The position numbers and the translations under genes are program-made. The notes beneath the pieces were generated by a model that saw only the letters and a program-made list of their open reading frames with translations, ran no database searches and was not told the DNA's origin. Source: Candidatus Omnitrophota bacterium (GTDB lineage: Bacteria; Omnitrophota; Gorgyraeia; Duberdicusellales; 4484-171). From it: DNA of 64,000 bases. The DNA lies in assembly GCA_043823745.1 (NCBI GenBank), contig JBDRAN010000028.1, positions 67,116-131,115 of the forward strand. Reading direction: 5' to 3'. How positions within the stretch are numbered: the first letter of the stretch is position 1; each line of letters starts with the position of its first letter. Below, in pieces: positions 40,339 to 54,999 of the stretch.

Positions 40339-40590
40339 ATGACCGAAAGCAATAAAAGCAGCGAACAAGCTCGTGTCATTTCCGCAAAGGATATTGTTGC
40401 ACAATACAATATCACCTACCAAACGGTCAATCATTACACAGATTTTGGATTATTGCCGGTTGTCACCAAGAAGGGTAACGTGCGTTTTTACGATACTGAC
40501 CTTATTGATAAGCGTTTAACGCAGATAGAGGAGTTCAAGAGGGAAGGTTATTCGTTGCGGCTTATCCGTAAGAAACTTATTGGAATATAA
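40339..40590 (+). CDS. Small MerR/excisionase-like HTH DNA-binding protein
   Basis: ISAKDIVAQYNITYQTVNHYTDFGLLP HTH motif. The ATG at 40339 lies inside the longer listed ORF. Confidence 0.5.
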   Translation: MTESNKSSEQARVISAKDIVAQYNITYQTVNHYTDFGLLPVVTKKGNVRFYDTDLIDKRLTQIEEFKREGYSLRLIRKKLIGI

Positions 40591-40736
40591 TGAAAAAATT
40601 ACCAATAACCAAGATACAAGCACCAAACAGATCGCAACACCCAATAACCAATAAGAAAATTGATTTGTTTGATGATTGGAATTTGGTCATTGAGTATTGT
40701 TTGGTTATTGGAAATTGATTATCGGTTATTTAAACC

Positions 40737-41615
40737 ATGAGTTATTATAAAGTTTTAGGATTTGACAAAGAGCCGTTTTCCACAAGTCCGGACCCTGATT
40801 TTTTTTATCTTTCCAAGGAGCATGAGACAGCGCTTACGAACATCCTGATCGAGCTGCGCTTAAAACGGGGGCTTTCAGTCATTCTGGGTGATGTGGGCAC
40901 CGGGAAAACGACCCTTTCGCGCAAGCTTATCCAGGAGTTAAAATCGCGTGACGATTTTGTGTTCCATATGGTGCTTGACCCCTCGTTTGACGATGAGCAG
41001 CTTTTTCTTACGTCACTTGCGCGTAACTTTGAGATTGCGTCCGTTCAGCAACCCGGCGCGACCGTACTTGATTTGCGTGAGGCGCTGGAACGGTTTCTTT
41101 TCCAGAAGGGAGTAAACGAGCACAAAACAATTACCCTGATCGTTGACGAGGCCCAGAAACTCAGCGACGGGTCGCTTGAGCTCTTACGGGTTCTTCTGAA
41201 CTATGAGACCAACGAGTATAAGCTCCTGCAGCTTATTCTTCTGGGGCAGCTTGAGTTGTATTCGCGCATCATGGGTATCGCTAATTTTTTTGACCGTATC
41301 AGTTTTAAGTATACCTTAAACCCTCTCGATATTAACGAGACACGCGAAATGATCGAGTTTCGCGTCCGCCAGGCGGGTTATAAAGCAAACATGTATATTT
41401 TTCTTGATGATGCGATCAGAGAGATTCATCAGCATACCCGGGGTTATCCGCGCCGCGTGACGATGCTTTGTCACAAAGCGCTTAAGAGCCTGGTGCTTAA
41501 AAATAAATTTGTAATTGACGCGGAAATTATTCGGGAGTTGATTCAAGAGGAGCATAAGCTCGGGTGGTACAATGCAAACGCCGTGCCTCAGAAGGCAGTG
41601 GTAAAAGCAGAATAA
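40737..41615 (+). CDS. ExeA/GspA/MshM-like AAA ATPase
   Basis: ILGDVGTGKTT Walker A and LIVDEAQ Walker B. 292 aa. Confidence 0.7.
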   Translation: MSYYKVLGFDKEPFSTSPDPDFFYLSKEHETALTNILIELRLKRGLSVILGDVGTGKTTLSRKLIQELKSRDDFVFHMVLDPSFDDEQLFLTSLARNFEIASVQQPGATVLDLREALERFLFQKGVNEHKTITLIVDEAQKLSDGSLELLRVLLNYETNEYKLLQLILLGQLELYSRIMGIANFFDRISFKYTLNPLDINETREMIEFRVRQAGYKANMYIFLDDAIREIHQHTRGYPRRVTMLCHKALKSLVLKNKFVIDAEIIRELIQEEHKLGWYNANAVPQKAVVKAE

Positions 41616-41619
41616 TAAT

Positions 41620-43224
41620 ATGAGTATTCAAATCAGATTTTTTCGTCCTCGTTTGGCGCGCACCAAGAGTTTTTTTATTCTCGTTATTCTTGCGATCGTG
41701 TTTACGCTCGCCGTCAGCCTTCTGCGCCGTGAGCCTGAAAAATCAGCGAACACGGTGCGGGACGTAACCGTTCCTTCGGCGTCGTATCCGCTGGCCCGCC
41801 GGCCGACGAGCTCCGCCGCCGCGGGATTTGCCCGCGCACGCGCGCTGCGAACGAAAGGGTCGGTTCAAGAAGCCTCGGCGGCCGAAGCGCCTTCATCCCG
41901 TACCCAGCCTGCCGTTGAGAAAAGCCTGTGGCGCATTAAAGGATACATGAAGAGCGCTGCCGAGGCAAACGCGTTCCTCAAGGAGAAGGCGGCGCTTCTG
42001 GGTAACCTGCTTGAGGCAAAAGCAAAAGAAACAGAGCATCTGACGCAGGAAAACGCGCGCCTTAAGAATGATGTGGAAACGATACAGAAAGAGCAAACCA
42101 GGCTGAAAGGTAAGTTTGCCGCACAACTCAGTAATCTGAACGTGCAACTTGCTCAAAAAGACCTCGTGCTGTCGGGGCTTAATACCGCCAAGCGTAACCT
42201 TGAGGGCGAGCTGAATAGCCTTGGCAACAAAATTACCGGCCTCTCAAGCGCGCATGATGCCGTGCAGTTTCAACTTGCAAATGCATTGGCCGGCAAAACA
42301 AGCCTCGAGGAGTCGGTGCGTAAGCTCACCGATGACCTTGCGCGGCAGAATACCGCCAATGAAGCGTTACATAAAAATGTTGAAGAATTAACGGCTGCCT
42401 TGCGAGACAAAGAAAGTCAGCGCCAGCTCGTCGCGGGCGAGCTGGAACAATTAGGGATATTTAAGAAAAATATCGAAGCGGAGCTCGTCAGTCTTAAGCG
42501 CAACAAGAGTGAGCTTTCTTCTGCGGCGCAGGATTTGGAAGCGCGGCTTGCTGAGGCTGTCACCGCAAAGAGCGGCCTTGAAGGGGAGTTGCGGAGCATT
42601 AAAGAAGAGCTCGCCAAGCAGCTGGCGGTGAATGAGGCTTTAAATCGCAGCGTGAATGAGCTATCGGATCGCGCCAACCAGGCAGAAAGTCGTGGACGCT
42701 CAAGCGCCGACGTCCAGGCTCAGTTTGACGCGTACCGGGCGCAGTCTGAGGCGCGCATCAGGGAACTCACCGATGCGCAGGCAGAGAGTGAAAAGAAAAT
42801 TCAGGAATTTCTCAATCGCATCGAGGAGCTTACCCGGGCATCCGATGCAACCAAAAAATCCACTTCAGAGCTTTCTGAGATTATCGCTCAAAAAGAACTT
42901 TCGATCAACGAGAAGCAGCGTGAGATTGAAAAGCTCACCGGGCTTCTGCAAAAAACGACCGCCGAGCGTAATAATCTTATTCTTACGCTTGAAGAGCGGG
43001 AAAGAAGCATCAATGGTTTACGCGCGGCCCTTAAGAATATGGAAGCCCAGAGCGCTGTCCTGCAACAGGAGCTTGGTTCAGGGCGCAGCTATGAGGCTGA
43101 TGCCGGCCGGCAGCTTGAGCAGGCCAAGGCGTTGAATAATTCTTTGAAGAAAAAGATCAGCAATCTTTACGTGGAGCTGGAATTGCTTCGCGTTGAAAGC
43201 GCGCAGCAGGCCCGATCGCAATAG
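41620..43224 (+). CDS. Membrane-anchored coiled-coil protein
   Basis: N-terminal TM segment (FFILVILAIVFTLAV), then about 400 aa of heptad-rich E/K/L/A sequence. Confidence 0.5.
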   Translation: MSIQIRFFRPRLARTKSFFILVILAIVFTLAVSLLRREPEKSANTVRDVTVPSASYPLARRPTSSAAAGFARARALRTKGSVQEASAAEAPSSRTQPAVEKSLWRIKGYMKSAAEANAFLKEKAALLGNLLEAKAKETEHLTQENARLKNDVETIQKEQTRLKGKFAAQLSNLNVQLAQKDLVLSGLNTAKRNLEGELNSLGNKITGLSSAHDAVQFQLANALAGKTSLEESVRKLTDDLARQNTANEALHKNVEELTAALRDKESQRQLVAGELEQLGIFKKNIEAELVSLKRNKSELSSAAQDLEARLAEAVTAKSGLEGELRSIKEELAKQLAVNEALNRSVNELSDRANQAESRGRSSADVQAQFDAYRAQSEARIRELTDAQAESEKKIQEFLNRIEELTRASDATKKSTSELSEIIAQKELSINEKQREIEKLTGLLQKTTAERNNLILTLEERERSINGLRAALKNMEAQSAVLQQELGSGRSYEADAGRQLEQAKALNNSLKKKISNLYVELELLRVESAQQARSQ

Positions 43225-43461
43225 TTGATGCGGGCCTCTCGATAGGTCTCTCCGTGAGTACGATGCTCCTTGCGGTGATGTGCGTATTCGCACTGCGCCG
43301 GGGTATCGGGTGATGAAAGAGCGGGTTTAACCGTGCGGCGCGCCATGAGTGCCTGTCGTGTCCGCACGCACAGCGTTCTTAAAAGAACCGCTGGCTATTT
43401 TGTGAGGCCTGCTTTTGGGGTTGTGTGAATCGGTGCTTATGGATACACCACGCACTATACG

Positions 43462-44136
43462 ATGATGGCAAAGGACGACAAAGCGCGTACGCCGGAGAAA
43501 AACCTGCTTAACCTCATTGAGACTCCTTCGTCGCGCGCGCCACTTTCAACCGCGACTATTAAACACCATGGGTTCAGCCTTTTTTCACCGGCGGCTCTTA
43601 AGGGTAGGTTTTCTTTTCTGCGCAATAGCCTTAAGAGCGGATTCAAATTACCCGATTTTTCTCAATTTGACGTTAAGCTGCTGAACGGCATTCTTCGGAT
43701 CGTTATTGTTGTTTTGACGGTTTATTTTTTGCTGAGCCTGGCGGGTTCGATGGCCGACCTGCGTAAGGGGTTTACGGTCACCTCGGAAGAAGGGGTAAAA
43801 GGCGTTGAAGAGCCCGCGGCTATTTCGTTTTTGAAAGCAGCGTCATATTATCTCGATAAAGCCCGTCAGCGTGATATCTTTACGATGGGTTTAAGAAAAG
43901 TTTCGGCTCCGGGCGGCAAAGTCAGTGTCAGCAGAATTATCGAGGAGACGAAAGATTTTCGCCTGGTGGGGATATCGTGGTCGGCTGACCCGGACGTGAT
44001 GATTGAGGACATTAAGAATAAGCGCACCTTGTTTCTTAAAAAAGGGCAACTGATCGATAACAAGATCAAGCTTAAAAGCGTTTTTAAGGATAAAGTTCTT
44101 TTAAGCTATGGAGGCGAGGAGATAGAATTACGATGA
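43462..44136 (+). CDS. Secretin-associated inner-membrane protein (GspC/PilP/MshK-like, tentative)
   Basis: Single TM segment (ILRIVIVVLTVYFLL) and a C-terminal beta-rich domain. ATGA overlap with the secretin start. Confidence 0.35.
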   Translation: MMAKDDKARTPEKNLLNLIETPSSRAPLSTATIKHHGFSLFSPAALKGRFSFLRNSLKSGFKLPDFSQFDVKLLNGILRIVIVVLTVYFLLSLAGSMADLRKGFTVTSEEGVKGVEEPAAISFLKAASYYLDKARQRDIFTMGLRKVSAPGGKVSVSRIIEETKDFRLVGISWSADPDVMIEDIKNKRTLFLKKGQLIDNKIKLKSVFKDKVLLSYGGEEIELR

Positions 44137-46115
44137 TGGTCAAGCGGCATACCACTTCATTCGTTGCCCGGCTTTTTGTTGGCGCGCTGTCGTTTTCTTT
44201 GGGGCTTGGCGCGAATGCGCCCCGCGTGGCGGGAAACCAGGCCTTTTCGTACGTTGTGGCCGAATCCGCCGCCGCGCGCGAAGACCTTGTCTCGGCCGCG
44301 CCCCAGGAACGCATATCGCTTAATTTGCGCAACATCGACATAATCGAGGCGCTTAAGTTTTTCTCTCTTCGCTCAGGCTATAATATTATCCCTACCCAGA
44401 AAGTCGCCGGCCGCGTGACGCTTAACGTTGAAAATGTAACGGTAAAAGATGTCTTTGACGTTATGTTGCGTTCCAATAATCTTGCCTACGATAAGCGGGG
44501 CGACATCTATAATGTTATGACGGAGGCGGAGTACAAGCAGCTGTACGGAAAGAATTTTTTTGACAGCCGTCAGGTTAAGGTATTCCGGCTCAAATATGCG
44601 ATACCCGAACAGGCGTTCAGCCTTCTTGATGCGATTAAAAGTGATATCGGCAGGCTCTTGGTGGATTCAGAGTCAGGTTCCGTGGTGATTATCGATACGC
44701 CGGAAAAAATTGCGGAAGCGGAAAGCGCCCTCTCAGCCATGGAGCAGAAGAATATGGTAAAGGTGTTCACGCTTAAATATGCCAAGGCAAAGGAAGTCGA
44801 GGAGCAGCTTAAAGTCCAACTCGATCTTAAAAAGGTCGGCCTTATCAAGGCCGACGAGAGGACGAACCAGGTTATCGTGCAGACGCTGCCTGAGCGCATG
44901 CAGAATATCGAAGAGCTTATTACGAGCCTTGATAAAAAAACCAAGGGCGTGCTTATTGACTGTAAGATTATTAAAATAAAGTTAAGCGACCAGCGTGACC
45001 AAGGCATTCAGTGGGAAGGCCTTTTTAATATTGCCAAAGCCTATGGCATGGCGTATCTGGGCTCCTATCCCTTTAGCGTGATGACTGCCGGAATCACCAA
45101 TCCCGCCTTTACCTCACGAGCCGATTATGCCAACACGGTCAACAGCGCCGGCCAGTACCCTTTTAGCGGCACAACCTCAAGCCTTAATGCAAGCACAAAG
45201 GTTGCGCCGGGTGAGAGGATGCATGTCGGGATCGTCGGCTCCAAGACCGATTTCGACGTTTTGATTAAATACCTGCAGACCTTGGGTAATTCTAAAATAA
45301 TGGCAAGCCCGTCGCTGGCGGTCGTCAATAACCAGGAAGCAAAGATCCATATCGGCGAGCGAAGGGCCTACATTACGACAACGACGACCACCGGGTCCAC
45401 AACGTCGACTGTTTCCGAGGAGGTAACGTTTGTTGACGTGGGAGTGCGCCTGTCGGTGATCCCTACGATCAATGACGACGGGTATATCACGATGAAGGTG
45501 AAGCCGGAAATAAGCAGTATTATCGGCAGCATTACTTCCTCCAGCAATAACGTGGTCCCCATTATCGACACTAATACCGCCGAAACAACCGTTATAGCCA
45601 AGGATGGTTCAACCGTTATCATCGGGGGCATGGGAAGGGAGGAGGTTACGGAAGGCTCCGAGGGGGTTCCGTTTCTCAGCAAAATTCCCATTATCGGTAA
45701 TCTTTTTAAGAATAGTACGAAACGCAAAGAGCGCGTTGAGCTGATTATTATGATTACCCCTATCATTTTTGAAGGGGATAAATTCATTACCACCAAAGAC
45801 GCAGACAAGTTTCCGGTTAAGCCGGTAAAAAAATTCGATGTTTTCAAGCAGGAATCGCCCCTGCCGCAATCGTCCTTAAGCAAGCCGATGACATCACCGG
45901 AAATCTATAAGGGGCTTAAGCGCCCGGAGCTAGGAGCGGCCGGCCCTATACATACCGGCTCAGGCGTTCCGCTTCCGTTTCAAAGGGATGTTTCCGCTAA
46001 AGGTTTTAAGATGTATGAAGGATTTTCTTCGAATCAGGACGTGACTGATGACGCGGTTAAGAAGTTTTCCGGCGGCGATAGCCAGGCAGTGAAAGGTTTT
46101 AAACCGTATAATTGA
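44133..46115 (+). CDS. Secretin (PilQ/MshL/GspD family)
   Basis: N0-like domain LNLRNIDIIEALKFFSLRSGYNII. Secretin core VVNNQEAKIHIGERRAY...VGVRLSVIPTINDDGYITMKVKPEISS...VIIGGM. Confidence 0.85.
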   Translation: MMVKRHTTSFVARLFVGALSFSLGLGANAPRVAGNQAFSYVVAESAAAREDLVSAAPQERISLNLRNIDIIEALKFFSLRSGYNIIPTQKVAGRVTLNVENVTVKDVFDVMLRSNNLAYDKRGDIYNVMTEAEYKQLYGKNFFDSRQVKVFRLKYAIPEQAFSLLDAIKSDIGRLLVDSESGSVVIIDTPEKIAEAESALSAMEQKNMVKVFTLKYAKAKEVEEQLKVQLDLKKVGLIKADERTNQVIVQTLPERMQNIEELITSLDKKTKGVLIDCKIIKIKLSDQRDQGIQWEGLFNIAKAYGMAYLGSYPFSVMTAGITNPAFTSRADYANTVNSAGQYPFSGTTSSLNASTKVAPGERMHVGIVGSKTDFDVLIKYLQTLGNSKIMASPSLAVVNNQEAKIHIGERRAYITTTTTTGSTTSTVSEEVTFVDVGVRLSVIPTINDDGYITMKVKPEISSIIGSITSSSNNVVPIIDTNTAETTVIAKDGSTVIIGGMGREEVTEGSEGVPFLSKIPIIGNLFKNSTKRKERVELIIMITPIIFEGDKFITTKDADKFPVKPVKKFDVFKQESPLPQSSLSKPMTSPEIYKGLKRPELGAAGPIHTGSGVPLPFQRDVSAKGFKMYEGFSSNQDVTDDAVKKFSGGDSQAVKGFKPYN

Positions 46116-46174
46116 TCATTGTATTTTTTTGTCGTCCGGGGAGTGAGGCGCAAGAGCTAAGAGGGAGAAGCGGA

Positions 46175-49100
46175 ATGAAAAAAATAATCGTTATTTTCTT
46201 TGTAGCCATGATGGTGTCGGTGTGCGGATTCGCGCGTAACGGAAACGGTTCGCCGGCGAGCGTTGATGATGAATTAAGCGGCCTCTTGGATGATTTTAAT
46301 AGTCTCAAAGAGGAGCTCGCGGCTGCGAGGGACGATTACCGGAATCTCACGAGTGAATACATGCAAGCCTCTGTGGATGCTCAGGCGCAGCTTGCCGCCG
46401 CCGCCGCAGAGCGCGCCGCGCTTAGTGCACAGCTTGCCCAGGCCCATGCCGCGCGGGAAACATTAAAGCTGCGCTATGAGCAGGCGCAAAGCTCGATTGC
46501 AGAAAAAGAGGGGTTTATCAATGAGACGGAGCGCGCCAGGCAGAAACTTGCGAATCAGCTTAAAGATATTGAAGATAAGTTTTCTCAGACACAAGCCTCC
46601 GGCGATCGCGCGCGCGCCCAATTGCAGCAAACGGCAAGCGACCTTACGAATAAAGAAAAGAATCTTGCGGAGATTGAGAATACCCGCCAGCAATTGAACA
46701 TGAATCTTAAGGAAACAGAAGCGCGGCTCGCGCAAATCGTCTCTGAGAAGGCAGCCATCGTAACCCAGCTTGCCGCCTACAAAGCCAAAGAATCCGGCTG
46801 GCAGCAGCGCGCCGGACAGCTTGCCGGCGTTATTGCCGAAAAAGAAAAAGCGATTATCAATGCAACAGGCGCAGCCAATCAGGTTAGCGTAAAACTTAAA
46901 GACTATGAAGCGAAGCTAGCCGCTCTTGAATCTCAGAAAACAGTACTCGAGAAGCGCGTTCAAGAGTCACAGGCTCGCGAGCAGGCACTCGAGGCGCAAG
47001 CGCAGCAGGCTGGCGCGAACCTTCAGGGTAACGAAAAAACTCTAAACGAATTAACACAGGCTAAGCAGCAGCTTCTTGTCCAGGCACAAGAGCTCCAATC
47101 GCGTCTTGCGGCAACACTCCAGGAAAAAGATAAGGCGCTTGCGGAACTGGCAACAACCAGGGAACAACTTCTCGCTCAGACAAAGGAATTAGAAACTAAA
47201 TCAGCGGCGGTGCAATCAGAAAAAGCCAGTCTCAACAGTCAGCTCGCCGCCTACAAAGCCAAAGAAACCGGTTGGCAGCAGCGCGCGAATCAGTTCGCGG
47301 AGACGATCGCCGAAAAAGAAAAAGCGATCGCGGATCTCGCAGCCGCAGGCAAGCAAGCCAGCGCGAAGCTCAAAGAGTACGACGAAAAGATCGCGGGGCT
47401 TGAATCCCAAAAAGCCGCGCTCGAGGCAGCGGCGAAAGGCCTGCAAACGCAGGGACAGTCGGCGCGCGTGCAGCTTGAGCAGACGGCCGCAGCGCTTCAG
47501 GAGAAAGATAAAGCACTGGTGGAGCTGACGAAAGCAAAGGAACAGTTCCTTGTTCAGATAAAAGAGCTGGAAACGAAGTCGGCAGCCCTGCAATTAGATA
47601 AAACAAACCTCGACGGACAGCTCGCCGCCTACAAAGCCAAAGAATCCGGCTGGCAGCAGCGCAGCCAGCAGCTGGCAATGGAGGCTAAGGATCTTGAGGC
47701 AAAATTTTCGCAGGTGAGTTCTGAAAAATCAGCGCTTCTGCCGCAGCTGGCCGCCTACAAAACCAAGGAAGCCGGCTGGCAGCAGCGCAGCCAGCAGTTA
47801 ACCGAACTGGTCAGCGAGAAAGAAAAAGGTATCGCCCAGCTTACGCAATCAGAAAATAATAACAACAATCTTATCAAAGAATATGAAGCGCGAATAACGA
47901 TTTTGAATCAGCAACGGATGGCTCTTGAAACACAGATAAAAAATATGAAAGCAAAAGTTGATTCGTTTGATGCGCAGCTAGGGCAGATGGTCGCCGCCGG
48001 GCAAGAGAAGGAACGTGAGTTTGCGCAGCTTGAACATACTCGTCAGCAACTGGTGGCGCAGGCTAAAGATCTTGGAAGCAGTCTTGCTCAAACGCTTTCG
48101 GAAAAAACAGCGCTTACCGGTCAGCTCAATGGCTACAAAATCAAGGAGGCGGGGTGGCAAGTGCGCAGCCAGCAGCTTGCAAGCGATATCGCTGATAAGG
48201 AGAAAACGATTGAAGCACTTACACAAACAGGTACTCAGACTGCCGCAACTTTGAGGGATTACGAAACAAAGATAGTTGCCCTTGAGTCACAGCGAGCGGC
48301 TCTTGAGTCTAAGATGCAAGACGCGCAAACGCAGCAAGAGTCGTTGCGGGTGCAGTTTGGAGAGGCAACGAGAGTGCTCCAGGGAAGAGACAAAGCTCTT
48401 ATGGAGCTGGCGAAGGCCAAAGAGCAGCTTCTCGGCCAGATAAAAGAGCTGGAAGCTAAATCAGGAACCCTGCAAATAGACAAAGAAAGCCTTGACGGGC
48501 AGCTGGCCGCCTACAAAACCAAGGAAGCCGGCTGGCAGCAGCGCGCCGGGCAGCTTGCCGGCGTTATTGCCGAAAAAGAAAAAGCGATCATTCAACTCTC
48601 GCAGGAGAAAACCCAAATACTCACTCAACTACGCGAAACCAGGGAGAAGTATGCACAGGAAGTATCGGCGCGCGAAGCGTTACGTAAACAGTTTGATGAA
48701 CTGAGCGAGAAAGAAAAAGCCTTGCGAGCGCAGACTGCGTCCGAAAAAGGGTCTCTCGAAGCGCAACTTAATGCCTACACGACCAAAGAGGCCGGCTGGC
48801 AGGTACGCTCTGGACAATTATCTACCGCTATTACCGATAGAGATAAAAATATCGCGGAACTCAAACAAACAGTGTATCAGAATGCTATTCAGCTTAAGGA
48901 TTATGAAGCACAGAGTGCCGCGCTGCAGCTTGAGAAGGCGGCTCTTGCCACGCAGTTCAAAGAGCTGCAGCTTAGAGAGCAGGCCGCCCAGATGAGCACG
49001 CAACAGGCGGTCGCGAGCCTGCAGGAGAAGGAAAAAACAATCGCCGGCTTGGCTCAAAGTCATCAGATTACCGCCATACAACTTAAAGGCTTTGAGGCAC

Positions 49101-50017
49101 AGCTTGCCCACGCAGCGAATGAAAAGTCTGAATTGCAAAAACAACTCGTTCAATGCGCGGCTACCATGGGGGATAAGGCTAAAATCATTTCTGGCCTGAC
49201 AGAAGACTTTAAGCATTCCAGTATGCAGGTTAGAGAGTCAGAAATAAAAATGGCGCAGCTTCGGAGCGAACGTGCCGGCCTGCAGAATCAATTTACACAG
49301 ATTAATGATCTCCTGCAGCAAAAAATGAAAACCATCGTGACACTTCAGGCCCAATACAATGAGCTCGCTAAAAAGCAGGAGGCAATCGTTACGCAGTTTA
49401 ACAATAGCGAGATGGCGTTAGGAGTTTTACAATCAGAAAAAGTAACGCTTGACGGCCGCGTTAGGGATTACGAGCTTAAAGAGCAAGCATGGCTCGCGAA
49501 AAATGAGCAGCTGGCGGCTGCTATTGATATGAAGGAAAGAAATGTTAAAGATTTACTGACTCTGCAACAGAACTATGAGACGCAACTGCGCGACGTTCAG
49601 CGGCAGCAGGGTCAGCTGCAGGAAAAAAACACCCTTCTTTTTAAGGATAATAAGCTTCTGAAACAAAAAGTCGATCTCTATGCCGGCAGGCTTTCAAAGA
49701 TGGCGGTGCTTAAAGACCGGCTTTTAAAAGAAAACTCAGTCTTGCACTACAACCTCGGTGTTTTTTACCTGCAGCGGCAGGATTATAATGAGGCGATCGT
49801 TGAGTTTGAGAAGGTCCTGGAGCTTAGCCCCGATGACGCGGCTACCCATTATAATCTTGGGCTTGTCTATTCTGAATATCTCGATAATAAGCCAAAGGCG
49901 ATCGCGCATTTTAAGCGGTACCTTACGCTTGACCCCAAGGACAAAGATGCCGATCGCGCGCGTAAATATATTTTAACATGGGAAACGTGGCAGGATGAAC
50001 GGCCGGAAAGTCATTAA
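46175..50017 (+). CDS. Giant (1,281 aa) secreted or lipo-anchored coiled-coil protein with about eight ~120-aa repeats and a C-terminal TPR domain
   Basis: Signal peptide MKKIIVIFFVAMMVSVCGFA. Repeated LAAYKAKESGWQQRAGQLA...EKEKAI units. C-terminal YNLGVFYLQRQDYNEAIVEFEKVLELSPDDAATHYNLGLVY TPRs and a KYILTWETWQ tail. RBS GAGGGAG upstream. Confidence 0.7.
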   Translation: MKKIIVIFFVAMMVSVCGFARNGNGSPASVDDELSGLLDDFNSLKEELAAARDDYRNLTSEYMQASVDAQAQLAAAAAERAALSAQLAQAHAARETLKLRYEQAQSSIAEKEGFINETERARQKLANQLKDIEDKFSQTQASGDRARAQLQQTASDLTNKEKNLAEIENTRQQLNMNLKETEARLAQIVSEKAAIVTQLAAYKAKESGWQQRAGQLAGVIAEKEKAIINATGAANQVSVKLKDYEAKLAALESQKTVLEKRVQESQAREQALEAQAQQAGANLQGNEKTLNELTQAKQQLLVQAQELQSRLAATLQEKDKALAELATTREQLLAQTKELETKSAAVQSEKASLNSQLAAYKAKETGWQQRANQFAETIAEKEKAIADLAAAGKQASAKLKEYDEKIAGLESQKAALEAAAKGLQTQGQSARVQLEQTAAALQEKDKALVELTKAKEQFLVQIKELETKSAALQLDKTNLDGQLAAYKAKESGWQQRSQQLAMEAKDLEAKFSQVSSEKSALLPQLAAYKTKEAGWQQRSQQLTELVSEKEKGIAQLTQSENNNNNLIKEYEARITILNQQRMALETQIKNMKAKVDSFDAQLGQMVAAGQEKEREFAQLEHTRQQLVAQAKDLGSSLAQTLSEKTALTGQLNGYKIKEAGWQVRSQQLASDIADKEKTIEALTQTGTQTAATLRDYETKIVALESQRAALESKMQDAQTQQESLRVQFGEATRVLQGRDKALMELAKAKEQLLGQIKELEAKSGTLQIDKESLDGQLAAYKTKEAGWQQRAGQLAGVIAEKEKAIIQLSQEKTQILTQLRETREKYAQEVSAREALRKQFDELSEKEKALRAQTASEKGSLEAQLNAYTTKEAGWQVRSGQLSTAITDRDKNIAELKQTVYQNAIQLKDYEAQSAALQLEKAALATQFKELQLREQAAQMSTQQAVASLQEKEKTIAGLAQSHQITAIQLKGFEAQLAHAANEKSELQKQLVQCAATMGDKAKIISGLTEDFKHSSMQVRESEIKMAQLRSERAGLQNQFTQINDLLQQKMKTIVTLQAQYNELAKKQEAIVTQFNNSEMALGVLQSEKVTLDGRVRDYELKEQAWLAKNEQLAAAIDMKERNVKDLLTLQQNYETQLRDVQRQQGQLQEKNTLLFKDNKLLKQKVDLYAGRLSKMAVLKDRLLKENSVLHYNLGVFYLQRQDYNEAIVEFEKVLELSPDDAATHYNLGLVYSEYLDNKPKAIAHFKRYLTLDPKDKDADRARKYILTWETWQDERPESH

Positions 50018-50020
50018 CCC

Positions 50021-50336: not shown

Positions 50337-52304
50337 ATGAAATTATTAAACACAATCAGGCGCGGGCGCATGTGTGTTTGCCTTGTAAACATTCTTGTCT
50401 TATCTGTGGTGTTGTTGCCGCTGGCACACGCCGCAGAAGAGGCGGTATCGATCATCGATGAGGCGGTCATAGAGGCAGTTCCTGGCGAGACCCTCGCCCA
50501 TGAGGCGGTTGCGTCACCGGCAAAACTCGAAGAAGAAGAGATAGCGGGAAAGGAGGATAAAGAAATAGCGGCGGCAGCCGAGGAAAGCGAAGAGGAAGCG
50601 CTGAAGCGCCTGCGCCAGAGCATGAGCGAGGATGAGCTTTTCAGCCAGCGCGTATCGCTTGATCTTCGTAATATCGATGTTCTTGAAGCGCTCAAATTCC
50701 TCTCGACAAAAAGCGGCCTTAATATCGTCCCCACGAAAAATGTTTCCGGCCGGGTCAGCCTTACGATCGAGGACGTCCCTTTTAAGGATGTGTTTGATCT
50801 CCTGCTGCGCTCAAACGGCCTCGCGTACACAAAAGTCGGGAAAATTTATTCGGTAATGACCGAGGCGGAATATAAAGCGTTGTACGGGAAAAATTTCTTT
50901 GACGTCCGGCAGGTTAAGGTTTTACGCTTGCAATACGCGATACCCGAGCAGGCATTTACGATGCTTGACGCGATAAAGAGCGACCTGGGGCGCGTTATCA
51001 CCGATAAAGAATCGGGCAATGTCATGATCATGGATACGCCCGAGCGTATCGTTCAGATGGAAGCGGCGCTGGCGGAATTTGAAAAGCGCAATATCGTGAG
51101 AGTTTTTTCCTTAAAATACGCGCGCGCCAAAGAGGTCGAGGAGATCCTGCGCAGCCGGCTTGACGCAAAGAGCGTCGGTTCAGTGAAGGCCGATGAGCGA
51201 AATAATCAAATTATTGTTCAGACGCTTGCCGATCGTATGGACGAAATTACGACCCTTATCGGGCGCCTTGACCGGACCACCAAGGAAGTGCTCATCGATA
51301 CGAAAATTATTAAAATAAAACTTTCGGATCAGTTGACCTCGGGCCTTGAATGGGAAGGGCTTTTTAATGTTCTGAAGAAATTCGGCGGGACCTATCTTGG
51401 CTCGTATCCCTACAGCGTCATGAATGCCGGCGTTACCACGCCCGCGTTTCAGACGCGCGTTAATCAACTGGACAGCACGGGAGGCAATGTCGGATACTAC
51501 CCGTTTAGCGGCACCACCCCAGCATTAAGTACCAGCACTAAAACTGTTGTCGGTAAAAACATGCACTTTGGCATGGTTTCCGAGGATCTTGATTTTGACC
51601 TCCTTCTTAATTATTTTAATACCATCGGTAAAACCCGGGTGCTGGCAAATCCTAAAATCATCGTGGTAAACAATCAGGAGGCAAAAATCCATATCGGCGA
51701 GCGCCAGGCCTACGTTACAACGACCACAACCACGGGGCAATCCACCAGCACTGTTTCCGAAGAGGTCCAGTTCGTGGATGTGGGCATACAGCTATCCGTA
51801 ACCCCCACGATCAATGACGATGGTTTTGTTACCATGAAGGTTAAGCCGGAAATTTCAAGCGTCAGTTCGATTTTAACGACACCGACGGGAAATAAGATCC
51901 CTATTATTGATACGTCGTTAACCGAAACCACGGTTATGGTCAAGGATGGAGTTACACTGCTCATCGGCGGCTTACGCAAAGAAGAAAAATTCCTTGATTC
52001 CACGCAAACCCCGTTTTTGGGTAGTCTTCCGTTCGTGGGGAACCTTTTTAAAAGCTCGACCGATAAGACAGACAGGACTGAGCTTCTGGTTATGATAACG
52101 CCGCATATCGTTGCCGGAAATGATTTTGAAGCCGGTGCGGCGCGTGAAATCGGCGATAAGCCGCCGAAAGATTACCGCCAATATCAGCCGATTACACCCG
52201 ATAAAACGTTGCTTCCCGCCGGAGCCACACAAGGCCCGGCGCTTGCGCCTAAGTCGTACCGTGATTATTTAAGTTTTAGCGAAAAAAAAGGCGAGGATGC
52301 GTAA
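50337..52304 (+). CDS. Secretin paralog (PilQ/MshL/GspD family)
   Basis: About 65% identical to the 44133 product across the N0 and secretin domains. Acidic E-rich N-terminal extension. Confidence 0.85.
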   Translation: MKLLNTIRRGRMCVCLVNILVLSVVLLPLAHAAEEAVSIIDEAVIEAVPGETLAHEAVASPAKLEEEEIAGKEDKEIAAAAEESEEEALKRLRQSMSEDELFSQRVSLDLRNIDVLEALKFLSTKSGLNIVPTKNVSGRVSLTIEDVPFKDVFDLLLRSNGLAYTKVGKIYSVMTEAEYKALYGKNFFDVRQVKVLRLQYAIPEQAFTMLDAIKSDLGRVITDKESGNVMIMDTPERIVQMEAALAEFEKRNIVRVFSLKYARAKEVEEILRSRLDAKSVGSVKADERNNQIIVQTLADRMDEITTLIGRLDRTTKEVLIDTKIIKIKLSDQLTSGLEWEGLFNVLKKFGGTYLGSYPYSVMNAGVTTPAFQTRVNQLDSTGGNVGYYPFSGTTPALSTSTKTVVGKNMHFGMVSEDLDFDLLLNYFNTIGKTRVLANPKIIVVNNQEAKIHIGERQAYVTTTTTTGQSTSTVSEEVQFVDVGIQLSVTPTINDDGFVTMKVKPEISSVSSILTTPTGNKIPIIDTSLTETTVMVKDGVTLLIGGLRKEEKFLDSTQTPFLGSLPFVGNLFKSSTDKTDRTELLVMITPHIVAGNDFEAGAAREIGDKPPKDYRQYQPITPDKTLLPAGATQGPALAPKSYRDYLSFSEKKGEDA

Positions 52305-53396
52305 ATGAAAATGCAGGCAGGATTTTTGAAGATCATCATTAACCGGAACGTTATCTTTTTTGTTGTTCCTCTTGCCGCGGCGCTCATGGCAGCGTCATAT
52401 TTTGCCCTGAAAGCTCATACATATTCCGCGCGGCTTCGCGCGCAAGGCGGAACGTATGAGAAATTCAACAAAGAAAACGTTGAACTGCGTGATGCGTATG
52501 TTACCATAAAAAATGATTACGAAAAGATAAAAAAAGACTACGACAACATCTCGGCTGACCGCGATAATCTTCTTATCCAGATAAAGAAAAATGTCGCTGA
52601 TGTAAACCGCCTAGCCGAGCTTGAGGCAGCAACCGGAGAATTTACTAAAGAAAAGGATGGGCTTGAAAGCGAAAAGCTGGCGCTTCTTAACCAGAATGCC
52701 GATTTAAAAGAAAAAATCGATAAACTCCAGGGTGTGTATAAGCAGGCGCTTGATGCGCGTGACGCGCTCAGCGAAGAGCTCGTGCGCGCAAAAGACGCTT
52801 CGGGAAAAATGGTCCTTGAGCAGCAGAATGCTGAGCTTACCAGGCGCCTGGCTGCCGCACAGGAGGAAAACGGGCGCCTGCAGAGCGCTCAATCGGCAAC
52901 GCTTAAGCAGGCGCTGGATACGGTCACCACGCTTAAAGCGAGCGACGCGCAGCTGCAGGATAAAGTTAAGGAATACCAGCTTCACGAGAAAGAGTTAACC
53001 AAGAAATACGCCGAGGCGGTTAAGAAAACAAAATCCTTTGAAGCCAAGGTCGCGCGAGACCCGGCAAAGTTTACGGAAATTGCGCGGCAGAATAAGGCGC
53101 TTATACGCGATACCTCCACCATGCATTACAACATGGGGGTATTTTACTTAAAACAAAAAGAATATTCGCGCGCGGTAGCGGAATTTGAAAAAGCGGTTGA
53201 GCTTACTCCGGACGACGCCTACGCGCATTTTAATTTAGGTTATATGTATGCCGAGTATCTGGTGAATCGTAAAAAAGCAGTGGAGCATTTCAGGCACTAC
53301 TTGCGCGTCGCAAAGAGTGACGATAAAGACGTCGATTGGGTCAAAAAATATATCCTTACATGGGAAACATGGCAGGCTCAACAGCCAATGAAATAA
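52305..53396 (+). CDS. Coiled-coil + C-terminal TPR protein (short paralog of 46175-50017)
   Basis: N-terminal TM/signal, about 230 aa coiled coil, and a TPR tail ending KKYILTWETWQ, identical to the giant paralog's tail. Confidence 0.65.
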   Translation: MKMQAGFLKIIINRNVIFFVVPLAAALMAASYFALKAHTYSARLRAQGGTYEKFNKENVELRDAYVTIKNDYEKIKKDYDNISADRDNLLIQIKKNVADVNRLAELEAATGEFTKEKDGLESEKLALLNQNADLKEKIDKLQGVYKQALDARDALSEELVRAKDASGKMVLEQQNAELTRRLAAAQEENGRLQSAQSATLKQALDTVTTLKASDAQLQDKVKEYQLHEKELTKKYAEAVKKTKSFEAKVARDPAKFTEIARQNKALIRDTSTMHYNMGVFYLKQKEYSRAVAEFEKAVELTPDDAYAHFNLGYMYAEYLVNRKKAVEHFRHYLRVAKSDDKDVDWVKKYILTWETWQAQQPMK

Positions 53397-54448
53397 AACA
53401 GTTCTTTGGAAAGCTGGCCGCCTGCATAAGCGCAGGGGTATTTTTTTTCTCTGTATCAGGCTGCGGAAACGGTGCGTCTGCGCCGGCATTGCCGGCGCAG
53501 GTAGCGGCAGGCGCCGGTAACGAATCGGTGCGTCAACCGGATGCCGCGGAGGCTTCGGCCGACAACAATGCTGACGGTTTTGTCGGAGAGATCTTCGGTG
53601 AAAAGGTTCCGATAAACAATTATTATTTTGTGCGCGGTGTGATCGCGGTGTTCGGCAATAAGTTTGGCGCGCCGCCAAACACAAAAGAAGACCTTGAAAG
53701 TGCGATTTGGGATCAGCTCCTGTTGTCTCTGGTGGCGTTCAGCCAGAATATCAGCGTCACGCAAGAAGAAATTGACGCCGAGATAACCAGAACGCTTGCC
53801 GCGGAGCACACGGCCTTCGACCGCGTTAGCGATCCCGAAAATTACCATGAGTGGCTGCAGAAAAAAGCTGGCCTGACTCCGGAGCTTTTTGAAAATCAGA
53901 TCAGATATCTCCTGCAGCTTCAGAAACTTAAAAATCATGTTATCGACACCGTTGTTGCTCCAAGGATTACAGTAAGCGACGAGGAAGCCTACGAGGCTTT
54001 TTTACGCGAGCATAACACACTTGCGCTTGAACTTGTGCAGTTTAAGGCGCAAGAAGAGGCTGGTGCGTTCTATAAGAAAGTTGCAGGCCGTTCACGCTCC
54101 TGGGATCGGGAAAAGACGCGGTATGAAAAGGATGTACGTAAGCCGGGGTTTGTGTCGCTCGAATTTCTAATCGATCTTTGGGGAATACCTGCCGACGCTG
54201 CGTTTGCAATGGTGACGCGGTCTATCGGGGATATCTATCCGCCCCGGCCGGTCTATAAAGGATATGCGGTGTTTAAAATTCTCCAGACGCGCCAGGCAGA
54301 TACGTCGCTTTTTCCCGGAGCAAAAGAAAACTATAGGGAAAAAGTAAAGGCAAAGAAGAAAGTTTCAGGCTTTGCGAATTGGTTTGTAGGGCTTAAAAAC
54401 GCGGCCCAGATAAAAATATATGGCGAAGTACGAGATAATGTGCGATAA
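53369..54448 (+). CDS. Lipoprotein with SurA-N-like chaperone domain (tentative)
   Basis: Lipobox VSGC after a hydrophobic h-region. Alternative ATGs at 53360 and 53369. The function call is weak. Confidence 0.35.
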   Translation: MAGSTANEIKQFFGKLAACISAGVFFFSVSGCGNGASAPALPAQVAAGAGNESVRQPDAAEASADNNADGFVGEIFGEKVPINNYYFVRGVIAVFGNKFGAPPNTKEDLESAIWDQLLLSLVAFSQNISVTQEEIDAEITRTLAAEHTAFDRVSDPENYHEWLQKKAGLTPELFENQIRYLLQLQKLKNHVIDTVVAPRITVSDEEAYEAFLREHNTLALELVQFKAQEEAGAFYKKVAGRSRSWDREKTRYEKDVRKPGFVSLEFLIDLWGIPADAAFAMVTRSIGDIYPPRPVYKGYAVFKILQTRQADTSLFPGAKENYREKVKAKKKVSGFANWFVGLKNAAQIKIYGEVRDNVR

Positions 54449-54492
54449 TAGCAACTAATATGTTTTGTATCGGGAGAAAGAAGGAGGGCATC

Positions 54493-54999
54493 ATGAAGAG
54501 AATGGTTGTTCCCTTGGCGGTTTTATTTTTTGTAGCAGCCTGCGGCGTGAGCTTTGCGGCTGACAAGAAAAGAGTAGCAGCGCGCATGGGGTTATCCGAA
54601 CAGCAGCGGGTAGCGATTGCGGAGGATGCCACCGCGGCTATGACCGCTCAGGCGTGGACTATTTATCTGACTCAGCAGAACGTCGCGAGACCCAGCGTGC
54701 AGACCGACACACTCACCTTTACTTCTATGACCGTTGCTTCAACGAATCTTGTTGCCAAAGGCTATAATGTTTCTAGCTACGCGCTTAAAATAAACGATGA
54801 TGGTGGCGCGGTATGGGAAACAGTCCAGCGCAACGCGGATGACGATCTGGCGCTCTGGCGCGGCGAGTACCGGGAAGACGGGATTAACGGCGTTGTAACG
54901 ATGCGTTCAAAATCAGGCGCAACCGTGATGTATAATTTCTCAAGCGCAATGCCGGCGCTTAAGGAAGTTGGTGAGTCCGCGCCGCCAAAGAAGAAATAG
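54493..54999 (+). CDS. Small lipoprotein, unknown function
   Basis: MKRMVVPLAVLFFVAAC lipobox. Confidence 0.4.
   Translation: MKRMVVPLAVLFFVAACGVSFAADKKRVAARMGLSEQQRVAIAEDATAAMTAQAWTIYLTQQNVARPSVQTDTLTFTSMTVASTNLVAKGYNVSSYALKINDDGGAVWETVQRNADDDLALWRGEYREDGINGVVTMRSKSGATVMYNFSSAMPALKEVGESAPPKKK

Follow-up and report, generated by a model that had tools for sequence, protein, structure and literature searches.

Which secretion or filament system do the two secretins encoded in a 64-kb stretch of a Candidatus Omnitrophota genome (hereafter the window) belong to, when GspE, GspF and pilin genes are all absent from it? Our tblastn search of the window with Omnitrophota GspE/F/G/I/J/K/L/M proteins gave no match. 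An earlier note on this DNA had compared the locus to the secretin subcomplex of the MSHA pilus, while considering that its architecture did not match any canonical system. We show here that the same genes occur throughout the phylum and, in some genomes, beside those of a type II secretion system (T2SS). The best interpretation of the module is the half of a split T2SS that corresponds to gspA/C/D, not an MSHA-like or orphan system. It probably supplies the secretin side, in the outer membrane and periplasm, of a T2SS characteristic of Candidatus Omnitrophota.

A module conserved across Omnitrophota

The gene order first described (HTH, ATPase, transmembrane coiled-coil protein, GspC/PilP-like protein, two secretin-TPR pairs and two more genes) is real, all ten genes being found on the forward strand where they had been placed (Table 1). 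The module is kept across the phylum: 122 species genomes were matched with a relative of the GspC-like gene, and the same order was recovered in 80 genome loci as well as on further contigs. About 85 loci were fetched independently, and the order recurs in the great majority of them, far more often than chance would allow. The core order consists of MerR, an ExeA/GspA-like AAA ATPase, the GspC-like protein, a secretin, a coiled-coil-TPR protein, a SurA/PPIase-like chaperone and two small periplasmic proteins, usually followed by a secreted protein of 2,000-7,000 aa. Among the classifiable loci, two secretins were present in 21 and a single one in 30. The existence in Omnitrophota of a "T2SS-like locus upstream of giant genes" was already reported in a preprint of 2023, which describes these genes as "generally preceded by" such a locus, with gspD, gspE, gspF and a Rotamase_2 PPIase, and mentions neither doubled secretins nor coiled-coil-TPR partners (10.1101/2023.11.21.568195).

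The operon had been thought to end at 54999. However, two more conserved members have orthologues beyond this point, one at 59003-59476 and one that starts at 61286 and runs off the window, both split from the operon by a toxin-antitoxin/TnpB insertion. The first of these, a 157-aa protein for which no known relatives were found, has orthologues whose genes, in other genomes, directly precede that of the large protein. On the other side, homologues of the PAS histidine kinase (470 aa at full length in L090) and of the small receiver-only response regulator precede the module in 30 and 33 related loci, respectively; both are conserved neighbours, and the latter is probably a regulator. The MerR-type protein has orthologues in the same position in most related loci, and the promoter match upstream of its gene (11 of 12 positions) is the best sigma-70-like match within 39800-55600.

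Table 1. Features of the secretin module and its surroundings, in window coordinates.
Feature	Position	Strand	Evidence or remark
PAS-type histidine kinase, 3' part of gene, cut by window start	1..725	+	HisKA, HATPase_c
Receiver-only response regulator, 135 aa	1077..1484	+	PF00072, E 1e-27
STT3/PglB-type oligosaccharyltransferase	1513..4008	+	PF02516, E 5.5e-33; STT3-PglB core domain; WWDFG at residue 527
Sigma-70-like promoter match	40096..40123	+	TTGACA, 16 nt, TACAAT, extended -10 TG; pattern match only
Small MerR-type HTH protein, 83 aa, first module gene	40339..40590	+	PF13411, E 1.6e-8
Cytoplasmic AAA_22 ATPase, ExeA/GspA / MshM / TIGR03015 type, 292 aa	40737..41615	+	PF13401, E 3e-21
Inner-membrane-anchored periplasmic coiled-coil protein, 534 aa	41620..43224	+	N-terminal membrane helix; coiled-coil-type Pfam matches only
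GspC-like adaptor p224, 224 aa	43462..44136	+	Orthologue profile, AF2 model, Foldseek
Secretin A, 660 aa	44133..46115	+	Pfam, NCBIfam, AF2 model, Foldseek
Long periplasmic coiled-coil-TPR protein, 1,280 aa from first ATG	46175..50017	+	TPR_1, E 1.2e-12; ORF opens at 46112
Secretin B, 655 aa	50337..52304	+	Pfam, NCBIfam
Short coiled-coil-TPR protein, 363 aa	52305..53396	+	TPR matches
Periplasmic SurA/PrsA-like chaperone, 359 aa as called	53369..54448	+	SurA_N_3, E 7e-6; ORF opens at 53336
Small secreted protein, 168 aa as called, conserved module member	54493..54999	+	Orthologues 27-48% identical in most loci
Terminator-like hairpin, 11-bp stem then T-run	55139..55168	+	After last operon gene; pattern match only
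Small secreted protein, 157 aa	59003..59476	+	tblastn to L006 and L009; 14 orthologues aligned
Very large Sec-dependent repeat protein, 5' part, at least 904 aa, runs off window	61286..64000	+	Open frame

Secretins and their partners

Secretins A and B each contain an STN/N0 domain, two Secretin_N domains and a Secretin domain (E 3e-47), with no AMIN domain in either. In secretin A, a signal peptide is followed by N0, two ring domains and the secretin core, and the KGFKxY motif occurs twice in a disordered tail; secretin B has an acidic leader before N0, and its tail motifs are KDYRQY and PKSYRDY. They reach none of the curated cutoffs of the named secretin families, the PilQ and GspD models scoring 248 and 235 bits, both below cutoff, and the MshL model 169 bits against a cutoff of 250. 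T2SS secretins were the top structural matches of the AF2 model of secretin A, for which Foldseek retrieved PulD, GspD, InvG and ExeD as best hits.

The identity between A and B, previously put at about 65%, is 58% over 540 aa (BLASTP) and not uniform, ranging from 57-68% in the folded parts to 15-28% in the leader and C-terminal tail. In the tree, the A copies and the B copies each formed a clade of their own, indicating that the duplication is old. A large group of single-copy secretins formed the sister clade of the B copies, B being nearest to the secretin of one-secretin genomes. The secretin and coiled-coil-TPR pair is duplicated as proposed, not as a recent tandem copy but as an old, lineage-restricted paralogy. 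The two secretins may form either separate or mixed pores.

The assignment of p224 as a GspC/PilP-like protein was confirmed. Alignments delineate a cytoplasmic N-terminus with a conserved TPEKxLLxLIE motif and, after a single membrane helix, an HR domain in the periplasm; there is no PDZ domain. The C-terminal domain has the GspC HR / PilP-type fold: the profile of 70 p224 orthologues matches GspC (PDB 3OSS_C, E 1.4e-4) and also OutC (6HCG_e), and the AF2 model, whose C-terminal domain has a pLDDT above 90, retrieved 3OSS_C first in Foldseek (target TM-score 0.79, rmsd 1.5 A), followed by PilP and LspC. Some p224 homologues carry the Pfam domain T2SSC. The ATPase likewise proved to be ExeA/MshM-like, with intact Walker A (GDVGTGKT) and Walker B (LIVDE) motifs; it has neither a membrane segment nor a peptidoglycan-binding domain and is 59-86% identical among related genome loci. 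Between the ATPase and GspC-like genes, only double-secretin loci of the window type encode the 534-aa coiled-coil protein, which continues for about 435 aa free of proline after its membrane helix.

Both coiled-coil proteins encoded after the secretins do possess TPR domains. They are not the lipoproteins that had been suggested: the signal peptide of the long one is cleavable, and the short one is anchored in the membrane by a segment that stays uncleaved. In the former, a coiled coil of about 1,150 aa, made of about seven diverged repeats of around 126 aa with no repeat at the DNA level, precedes a C-terminal TPR domain of two to three repeats; its orthologues vary from 335 to 1,362 aa. The short protein, a core member in every layout of the module, has a coiled coil of about 218 aa (about 32 nm if continuous) before its C-terminal TPR domain. 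Its length is tightly conserved (median 363 aa, interquartile range 347-375). The TPR tails of the two paralogues are 47% identical. Judged from their sequences, these TPR domains are generic and the term "pilotin-like" is not supported, the tail profile matching generic TPR proteins only in the PDB, with no pilotin among its best 60 matches, and no lipobox being conserved in the proteins. The PilW and Tgl models scored far below their own cutoffs.

The two proteins that follow, also described as lipoproteins, are indeed secreted. The first is a SurA/PPIase-like chaperone (30 bits against the PRK00059 PPIase) with a lipobox in this genome only. Its 42 orthologues include 14 with a cyclophilin domain (E 1e-56), 14 with SurA_N_2/3 and seven with Rotamase_2, and this family of periplasmic chaperones/PPIases belongs to the fixed components of the module. 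The second, with no relatives in Pfam, NCBIfam or the PDB, has a possible lipobox that is missing in its orthologues.

Type II secretion genes in related genomes

Of the 80 genome loci, about 74 lacked GspE, GspF and pilin genes within 10 kb of the module. In six related genomes, by contrast, T2SS genes directly adjoin it. A gspE/F-G-I-J-K-L-M operon is located about 3 kb upstream of the module in three of them: L065 encodes T2SSF, T2SSG (E 1.9e-32), T2SSI, T2SSJ, T2SSK, GspL-like and GspM-like proteins 3-9 kb upstream, and in L093 and L096 the genes run from GspE (T2SSE, E 2e-128) through GspM to MerR-AAA-p224. Five prepilin-type genes lie directly upstream of MerR in L020, GspK-L-M-like genes directly downstream of the module in L063, and a GspM-like gene after the last module gene in L015. 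Conversely, none of the eight classifiable T2SS loci that we fetched (L094/95, L097-L102, L104) has a secretin or GspC homologue of its own in the sequence seen, which extends from gspF by at most 10 kb in each direction, short contigs giving less. These adjacencies and secretin-less loci together suggest that the module is one half of a split T2SS, so that a canonical system would account for its architecture. As the two halves are not adjacent in most related loci, we infer their pairing.

The module might instead be the secretin subcomplex of a surface type IV pilus (type-4a or MSHA-like) used for attachment or predation, which would pass through the secretins, the large protein being a co-regulated adhesin and not a cargo. 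A published survey (PMC10066038) annotated Omnitrophota filament clusters as type-4a pili and reported that they adjoin non-respiratory F-type ATPases and that V. archaeovorus expresses them. In L093, a gene for an F-type ATPase subunit does lie just upstream of GspE, and the GspE-type ATPase carries MshEN and PilZ domains, but T2SSG, T2SSI, T2SSJ and T2SSK, the families matched by the filament genes beside the module, are specific to T2SSs. Similarly, the marginally higher score of the PilQ model, compared with GspD, concerns secretins that nevertheless lack AMIN domains, and PilP is the second-best structural match of an adaptor anchored in the manner of GspC. A GspA/ExeA-type ATPase and a dedicated periplasmic chaperone also suit protein secretion better, and we consider a pilus unlikely. 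The MSHA analogy in particular is not supported, given the low MshL score, the GspC-like adaptor and the T2SS type of the adjacent filament genes in relatives.

In a different scenario, the module would be a self-contained translocon devoid of pseudopilus, whose ATPase, adaptor and coiled-coil-TPR struts replace the T2SS piston to export giant glycoproteins, the gsp adjacency being coincidental. The distance of GspE, GspF and pilin genes in most loci and their absence from the window fit such a device, as do the promoter, ATPase and chaperone that the module has of its own. We regard it as quite improbable: adjacency in six genomes exceeds the chance expectation, which we put roughly, rather than by computation, at less than one locus for genomes of about 2 Mb; the fetched T2SS operons lack a dedicated secretin within the sequence seen; and ExeA-type ATPases, such as that of Aeromonas ExeAB, have been described as assembly factors of secretins and not as motors of translocation.

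The large downstream protein and a model for its export

The protein starting at 61286 is orthologous to a 4,476-aa protein encoded after the module in L006 and belongs to a family of 2,671 representatives, the best 150 of which measure 2,222 aa in the median and up to 6,941 aa. Its mature N-terminus, QIK[RK], is conserved. A very large protein with a signal peptide follows the module in about 17 of the 27 loci with enough downstream sequence, whereas about one third of these have no large ORF there. The 904 aa present in the window contain 52 N-X-S/T N-glycosylation sequons (z = 7.9 against shuffles), and the enrichment is found in this protein and its orthologues (z = 6.5-11.8), only about 19% of the 150 best-scoring relatives being sequon-rich. 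We consider this protein the likely main cargo of the secretins.

The module adjoins a glycan island of about 38 kb (1495-39899), whose first gene encodes the STT3/PglB-type transferase. This enzyme is associated with the module and stands outside the secretin machine; STT3 also flanks the module in L003/L004, L017, L032 and L042, and glycosyltransferase and radical-SAM sugar genes do so in many genomes. The occurrence of STT3 in the island next to a sequon-rich protein points to a glycoprotein rather than to a free polysaccharide, and in this lineage the large surface protein is probably sugar-coated, being N-glycosylated in the periplasm by the neighbouring transferase. Export of polysaccharide from the island through the secretins, by analogy with exopolysaccharide loci of the PEP-CTERM/exosortase type, where an ExeA-like ATPase is encoded too, is most improbable: the best curated match of the ATPase is the XrtA/PEP-CTERM-associated TIGR03015 and sugar genes are frequent neighbours, but this match (185 bits) is far below the 324-bit cutoff, no Wza, Wzc, exosortase or PEP-CTERM features were seen, secretins are to our knowledge not polysaccharide channels, and the island varies between lineages, MerR directly following the response regulator in L016.

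Under the split T2SS that we favour, one GspD-type secretin, or two paralogous ones in this lineage, would form the pores. The GspA/ExeA-like ATPase, acting via the conserved cytoplasmic tail of p224, probably helps to assemble or place the secretin, and the HR domain of p224 would dock on the secretin N0 domain. Each secretin would have its own periplasmic coiled-coil-TPR partner, plausibly a tether or stabiliser; the short membrane-anchored one, at about 32 nm, could span the periplasm. The SurA/PPIase-type chaperone and the two small periplasmic proteins would be further parts. The inner-membrane platform and pseudopilus (GspE, F, G, I, J, K, L, M) would be supplied by a separate operon, elsewhere in most genomes and adjacent in some. 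The Sec-exported repeat protein of several thousand residues encoded just downstream, once glycosylated, would then be pushed through the secretin. Compared with known systems, the adaptor p224 shares its membrane anchoring with GspC, whereas PilP is a lipoprotein.

Operon layout, secretin paralogues and accessory proteins

The genes that the earlier note had listed in this operon were all recovered on the plus strand, at the positions it had given; they are compiled below together with the other features discussed here. Several window proteins were identical to proteins on short contigs of the sister assembly GCA_018827245.1. A PHROGs scan returned only resemblances to the phage pIV secretin and to a Mu-B-like ATPase.

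Coordinates of the secretin operon and of neighbouring or related features (window positions unless a locus is named; L-numbers are fetched related Omnitrophota loci)
Feature	Location	Strand	Remark
Glycan island	1495-39899		about 38 kb
Protein of 524 aa	20631-22205; L008/L009 1295-2869		no Pfam match
Promoter-like match	40096		best of region
MerR-type HTH	40339-40590	+	PF13411
AAA_22 ATPase	40737-41615	+	TIGR03015 best curated match, below cutoff; Walker motifs intact
Membrane-anchored coiled-coil protein	41620-43224	+	534 aa
p224 (GspC-like protein)	43462-44136	+	224 aa
Secretin A	44133-46115	+	tail 45774-46112
Long coiled-coil-TPR protein	46175-50017	+	1,280 aa
Secretin B	50337-52304	+	tail 51978-52301
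Short coiled-coil-TPR protein	52305-53396	+	363 aa
Two secreted proteins	53369-54448 and 54493-54999	+
Terminator-like hairpin	55139		after last operon gene
Region with four nucleotidyltransferase/HEPN pairs	55497-61056		toxin-antitoxin-like
IS605-type TnpB	56202-57422		inside HEPN gene (halves 55904-56212 and 57415-57606)
Partial duplicate, 5' end of 157-aa gene	57808-58071		vs 59023-59277
157-aa ORF	from 59003
Partial duplicate, 5' end of large gene	59715-59781		vs 61444-61510
Large ORF	61286 to window end		open, at least 904 aa
Five prepilin-type genes	L020 93-2343
Genes upstream of gspF	L093 41-9263
Post-gspM protein	L065 6079-6978; L093 15891-16541; L094 16294-17097; L096 12184-12903	minus	opposite strand to operon
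Post-gspM protein	L097 7707-8426; L101 8045-8743; L104 15747-16430	minus	opposite strand to operon

Both secretins carried the Secretin, Secretin_N and STN domains of Pfam. They were 58% identical over 540 aa, the N0, ring domains and core sharing 57-68% and the leaders and tails only 15-28%. In the AF2 model of secretin A, the signal peptide was followed by N0, a pair of ring domains, the core and, last, a disordered tail of 100 aa; the model had neither S-domain nor AMIN domains, and Pfam gave no AMIN match. Its best structural matches were the T2SS secretins PulD, GspD and ExeD together with InvG, PilQ being slightly behind. Every curated secretin family scored below its cutoff for A and B: 248 and 250 bits for PilQ (TIGR02515, cutoff 284), 235 and 227 bits for GspD (TIGR02517, cutoff 351, with only N0 and two ring domains present) and, lower than these two models, 169 and 164 bits for MshL (TIGR02519, cutoff 250).

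In a neighbour-joining tree rooted at the midpoint, the window-type A copies formed one clade and the B copies a separate one, sister to a large clade of single-copy secretins. Best-hit scores agreed with this separation, and the duplication is thus old. A recent duplication or an assembly artefact was ruled out by the low identity between A and B and by the presence of orthologues of each in more than 10 genomes. The disordered secretin tails bore short Tyr motifs that differed by paralogue: two KGF[KR]xY motifs in the A copies, the last one at the very C-terminus, and K[DE]Y[KR][DE]Y plus [IV]K[PS]Y[RK][DE]Y in the B and single-copy secretins. These motifs may be docking peptides for the TPR domains.

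The two coiled-coil-TPR proteins were nearly proline-free and consisted for about 72% of A/E/L/K/Q/R/D/N. The long one, with about seven diverged repeats of 126 aa, started with a cleavable signal peptide and the short one with an uncleaved membrane anchor; no lipobox was conserved, and neither protein is a lipoprotein, contrary to the earlier note. No tandem repeats were found at the DNA level in the 1,280-aa gene; its repeats are old and can be seen in the protein only. The two TPR tails shared 47% identity. From genome to genome, the short protein was of rather constant length (median 363 aa, interquartile range 347-375) and the long one ranged from 335 to 1,362 aa. The proposal that the TPR domain is a pilotin was rejected: it had only 2-3 generic repeats, a profile of 73 TPR tails matched generic TPR proteins only, with no pilotin among its best 60 PDB matches, and the PilW (TIGR02521, 31.5 bits against 154) and Tgl (NF033762, 22 against 225) models remained far below their cutoffs.

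The label "GspC/PilP-like" given earlier to p224 proved correct, with the topology of GspC. The N-terminus of this protein is cytoplasmic and conserved (TPEKxLLxLIE); a single membrane helix leads to a C-terminal beta domain, which AF2 modelled with pLDDT >90. A profile of this domain (70 orthologues) matched the GspC HR domain 3OSS in the PDB (E 1.4e-4) and also OutC, and Foldseek placed 3OSS_C first (target TM-score 0.79, rmsd 1.5 A), followed by PilP and LspC; some p224 homologues carried PF11356. A GspC-type HR domain, a feature of T2SS membership, is hence present in p224, its binding to N0 being predicted; a PDZ domain was absent.

The ATPase (292 aa) matched PF13401 (E 3e-21) over residues 43-177 and retained Walker A (GDVGTGKT) and Walker B (LIVDE) motifs, as found in a cytoplasmic AAA_22 domain. 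The TIGR03015 alignment covered residues 3-271 with 185 bits against a cutoff of 324.5. The transmembrane segment and the periplasmic peptidoglycan-binding domain of ExeA were absent, Pfam giving only AAA/P-loop NTPase-type families. The first of the two secreted proteins belonged to a SurA/PrsA-like family, in which an alignment-wide Pfam scan detected a cyclophilin domain in 14 of 42 orthologues and a parvulin-type domain in 7 of 42. PDB sequence searches with the ATPase and with the SurA-like protein of the window gave nothing useful, and profiles of the 179-aa and 157-aa small proteins had no PDB match.

Conservation of the module and its T2SS neighbourhood

Look-ups of three secretin homologues showed that the whole gene order, from MerR through to the small protein and then a very large protein, recurred in other Omnitrophota contigs, with either STT3 or genes for B12-radical-SAM enzymes and glycosyltransferases at its flanks. 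Relatives of p224 were present in 122 genomes (p224 alignment scan, one genome per species), and we fetched 80 loci, essentially all labelled Omnitrophota. Their core order was MerR, AAA, p224, secretin, short coiled-coil-TPR protein, small protein, SurA-like protein, small protein and large protein. Thirty loci, each with at least 7 kb visible downstream, had a single secretin and 21 had two; a further 26 were unclassifiable. The double layout of the window type has three more genes than the core, namely those for the 534-aa coiled-coil protein, for secretin A and for the long coiled-coil-TPR protein, and a second double layout lacks the 534-aa protein. Upstream, the module was most often accompanied by a response regulator of the receiver-only kind (33 loci) and by a PAS histidine kinase (30 loci). 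The same pair stands at the start of the window, separated from MerR by the 38-kb glycan island.

Most of the related loci, like the 64-kb window, lacked GspE, GspF, GspL/M and the pseudopilins GspG-K. First motif scans had found no GspE-type Walker A and had detected pilin-like N-termini in two loci, catching only two of the five pilin-like genes of L020 and one of the three of L065. The idea that T2SS genes are missing near the module was overturned by direct reading of L020, a looser motif, Pfam analysis of L065 and a metagenome scan with the GspF of L065, which yielded 12 loci. T2SS genes directly adjoined the module in six genomes, as full or nearly full sets in L065, L093 and L096 and as partial sets in L020, L063 and L015. 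In L065, the end of a T2SSF gene, a peptidase, T2SSG (E 1.9e-32), T2SSI, T2SSJ, T2SSK, a GspL-like (PilM/PilN) and a GspM-like gene lay 3-9 kb upstream of MerR-AAA-p224-secretin. L093 and L096 shared the order GspE ... GspF-peptidase-G-I-J-K-L-M, two opposite-strand genes and MerR-AAA-p224, the genes between GspE and GspF in L093 being PilZ and sensor-kinase genes, with no secretin. L020, which is of the window type, had five prepilin-type genes directly upstream of MerR, L063 had GspK-L-M-like genes directly after the module, and L015 a GspM-like gene after it. The same E-M operon was found in the other loci amenable to classification (L094/95, L097-L102 and L104), with no homologue of the secretin or of p224 within 10 kb on either side of gspF, or less on short contigs.

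Since T2SS genes adjoin the module in six genomes and the T2SS operons seen are devoid of secretin, the simplest reading of these gene orders is that the module would supply the gspA/C/D functions of a split T2SS. The module is real, conserved and unusual and is best read as a T2SS variant, all statements on its function resting on homology and gene neighbourhood.

Several further observations concern the T2SS operons. A protein of 216-299 aa was encoded on the opposite strand directly after gspM in nearly every fetched Omnitrophota T2SS operon. The L093 copy is a multi-repeat TPR protein according to Pfam, and the other copies were grouped with it by 29-43% BLAST identity to the long coiled-coil-TPR protein of the window. 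This protein could be a separate pilotin-like factor. The region upstream of gspF in L093 also encoded an alpha/beta subunit of an F-type ATPase, a GspE that combines MshEN with C-terminal PilZ, a further PilZ protein on its own and CHASE/PAS sensor kinases, a gene content that suggests control by c-di-GMP. This set matches published loci described as a type-4a pilus next to a non-respiratory F-ATPase; the "type-4a pilus" clusters reported beside F-type ATPases in Omnitrophota (PMC10066038) may be the same filament operon. The five prepilin-type genes of L020 seemed, on inspection by eye, to contain many N-X-S/T sequons.

Candidate cargo and proposed export route

The large ORF was missing from the ORF list because it runs off the end of the window. 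Its product, a candidate cargo, was orthologous to proteins located after the module in L006 (4,476 aa) and L009, and the 157-aa ORF matched the small gene that precedes the large protein in both loci. Its Sec signal peptide precedes a mature N-terminus, QIK[RK], that is conserved, and the protein had no Pfam match. The family included 2,671 representatives at E up to 0.001, with a median length of 2,222 aa and a maximum of 6,941 aa among the best 150 of the 2,671. Of the 27 loci that extended far enough downstream, about 17 had a large ORF after the module, a link that is frequent without being universal.

In the window, four NTase/HEPN pairs and an IS605-type TnpB set the 157-aa and large genes apart from the operon. 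The TnpB gene splits one HEPN gene into two halves, the 5' ends of the 157-aa and large genes are partially duplicated in this region, and the 6-kb contig of the sister assembly stops just short of the TnpB gene.

The large protein, a secreted repeat protein, contained 52 N-X-S/T sequons in 904 aa (5.75 per 100 aa). The remaining window proteins averaged 0.47 per 100 aa, a density about 12-fold lower, and composition-preserving shuffles gave z = 7.9. Its orthologues in L006 and L009 were enriched as well (z 6.5 to 11.8), and only about 19% of the best 150 of the 2,671 relatives were sequon-rich. Only two loci had both STT3 and large protein genes, and both were sequon-rich. This density points to heavy N-glycosylation in a bacterium. 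The glycan island, located between the kinase/regulator pair and the secretin operon, is headed by an STT3/PglB-type oligosaccharyltransferase with a WWDFG motif; we found no mention of Omnitrophota together with an oligosaccharyltransferase in the literature searched. The island also contained GT2, GT4, GT9 and PMT_2 transferases, heptose-type genes, RmlD, a split transketolase and no fewer than nine radical-SAM enzymes, of which six carry B12-binding domains. In at least five glycan clusters of Omnitrophota, the 524-aa protein was conserved with B12-radical-SAM genes on both sides.

We propose that the large protein would be exported by Sec, handled by the SurA/PPIase-like chaperone, N-glycosylated in the lineage of the window, and driven out through the secretin by a pseudopilus platform whose genes lie elsewhere. 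The p224 protein would link this platform to the N0 domain of the secretin, and the truncated ExeA-like ATPase probably takes part in assembling the secretin via the cytoplasmic motif of p224, in the manner of ExeAB in Aeromonas. The short coiled-coil-TPR protein would be anchored in the inner membrane, and from there its coil, about 32 nm long, could extend to the outer-membrane complex. Speculatively, its TPR domain might bind the Tyr tails of the secretins (KGFKxY in A; KxYRxY in B and single copies), replacing a pilotin. It is a doubtful extension of this scheme that, in one large Omnitrophota branch, one T2SS platform would serve two secretins, each with its own periplasmic coiled-coil-TPR protein reading its lineage-specific Tyr-motif tail instead of a pilotin, as two specialised pores or one mixed A/B pore for multi-thousand-residue, heavily N-glycosylated proteins of the surface. 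If true, this would be a T2SS architecture and a route of bacterial N-glycoprotein export not described before.

Omnitrophota are abundant, uncultured and ultra-small bacteria, thought to be predators or parasites. Foremost among the candidates for host contact are their surface proteins of very large size. For the passage of these multi-thousand-residue proteins across the outer membrane, the present analysis names a likely exit machinery, a type II system encoded in two loci. Its accessory parts are unusual (coiled-coil-TPR proteins of periplasm length, an ExeA-like ATPase in truncated form and a foldase of its own), and two old secretin paralogues persist in one branch of the phylum. It also ties this machinery to probable bacterial N-glycosylation, an STT3 enzyme being encoded near a protein with nearly 6 sequons per 100 residues.

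Comparison with known systems

The module most resembles the GspA(ExeA)/GspB-GspC-GspD subassembly of the T2SS (Aeromonas Exe, Vibrio Eps, E. coli/Klebsiella Gsp/Pul), with which it shares a secretin with N0, ring domains and core, a bitopic GspC-type HR protein and an ExeA-type AAA_22 ATPase; the gspE-F-G-I-J-K-L-M set adjoins it in related genomes. It differs from the T2SS in being split over two loci in most genomes, in an ATPase without membrane segment or peptidoglycan-binding domain, and in a GspC-like protein that has a conserved cytoplasmic motif and neither a PDZ nor a coiled-coil C-terminal domain. Moreover, its secretin has three N-domains instead of four and a disordered Tyr-motif tail in place of the S-domain, periplasmic coiled-coil-TPR partners stand instead of a small pilotin lipoprotein, a dedicated SurA/PPIase chaperone is included, and two secretin paralogues exist in part of the phylum.

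The type IVa pilus PilQ-PilP-PilF/Tgl shares with the module a secretin, an HR-domain partner (PilP was the second structural match) and a TPR protein acting on the secretin, whereas the module secretins lack AMIN, the HR protein is membrane-anchored instead of a lipoprotein, the TPR protein has no lipobox, and PilM/N/O genes are absent in cis. The earlier note had drawn an analogy with MSHA, in which MshL-MshM-MshN form a similar combination of secretin, AAA_22 ATPase and TPR protein. This analogy was not supported: the MshL model was well below its cutoff, no MSHA pilin or MshE/G/I/J/K gene was found in the window, the filament genes adjoining the module in relatives are of T2SS type, and the module TPR is fused to a long coiled coil. 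Polysaccharide export via the secretins is unlikely: the best curated match of the ATPase and the glycan-gene-rich setting recall XrtA/PEP-CTERM exopolysaccharide loci, but the ATPase scores below the TIGR03015 cutoff, no polysaccharide-export genes were seen and the genes annotated in the window included no exosortase; the part of the large protein that could bear a PEP-CTERM tail lies beyond the window.

The split T2SS reading agrees with the "T2SS-like locus upstream of giant genes" described in Omnitrophota in a preprint (West-Roberts et al. 2023, 10.1101/2023.11.21.568195) and repeated in another (10.64898/2026.06.07.730766). The former describes the giant genes as "generally preceded by" a locus that comprises gspD, gspE, gspF and a PPIase of the Rotamase_2 type. 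This locus is in the same phylum and in the same place upstream of very large genes, and its components match the secretin of the module, the adjoining T2SS operon and the SurA-like chaperone; it is presumably the same locus. Term searches of both preprint texts gave no mention of two secretins, coiled-coil-TPR proteins, an ExeA-like ATPase, a GspC-like adaptor, a split arrangement or N-glycosylation. The T2SS variant is partly anticipated in the literature; what is new is that the secretin is doubled, that it has coiled-coil-TPR partners, that the system is split, and that it is probably linked to N-glycosylation.
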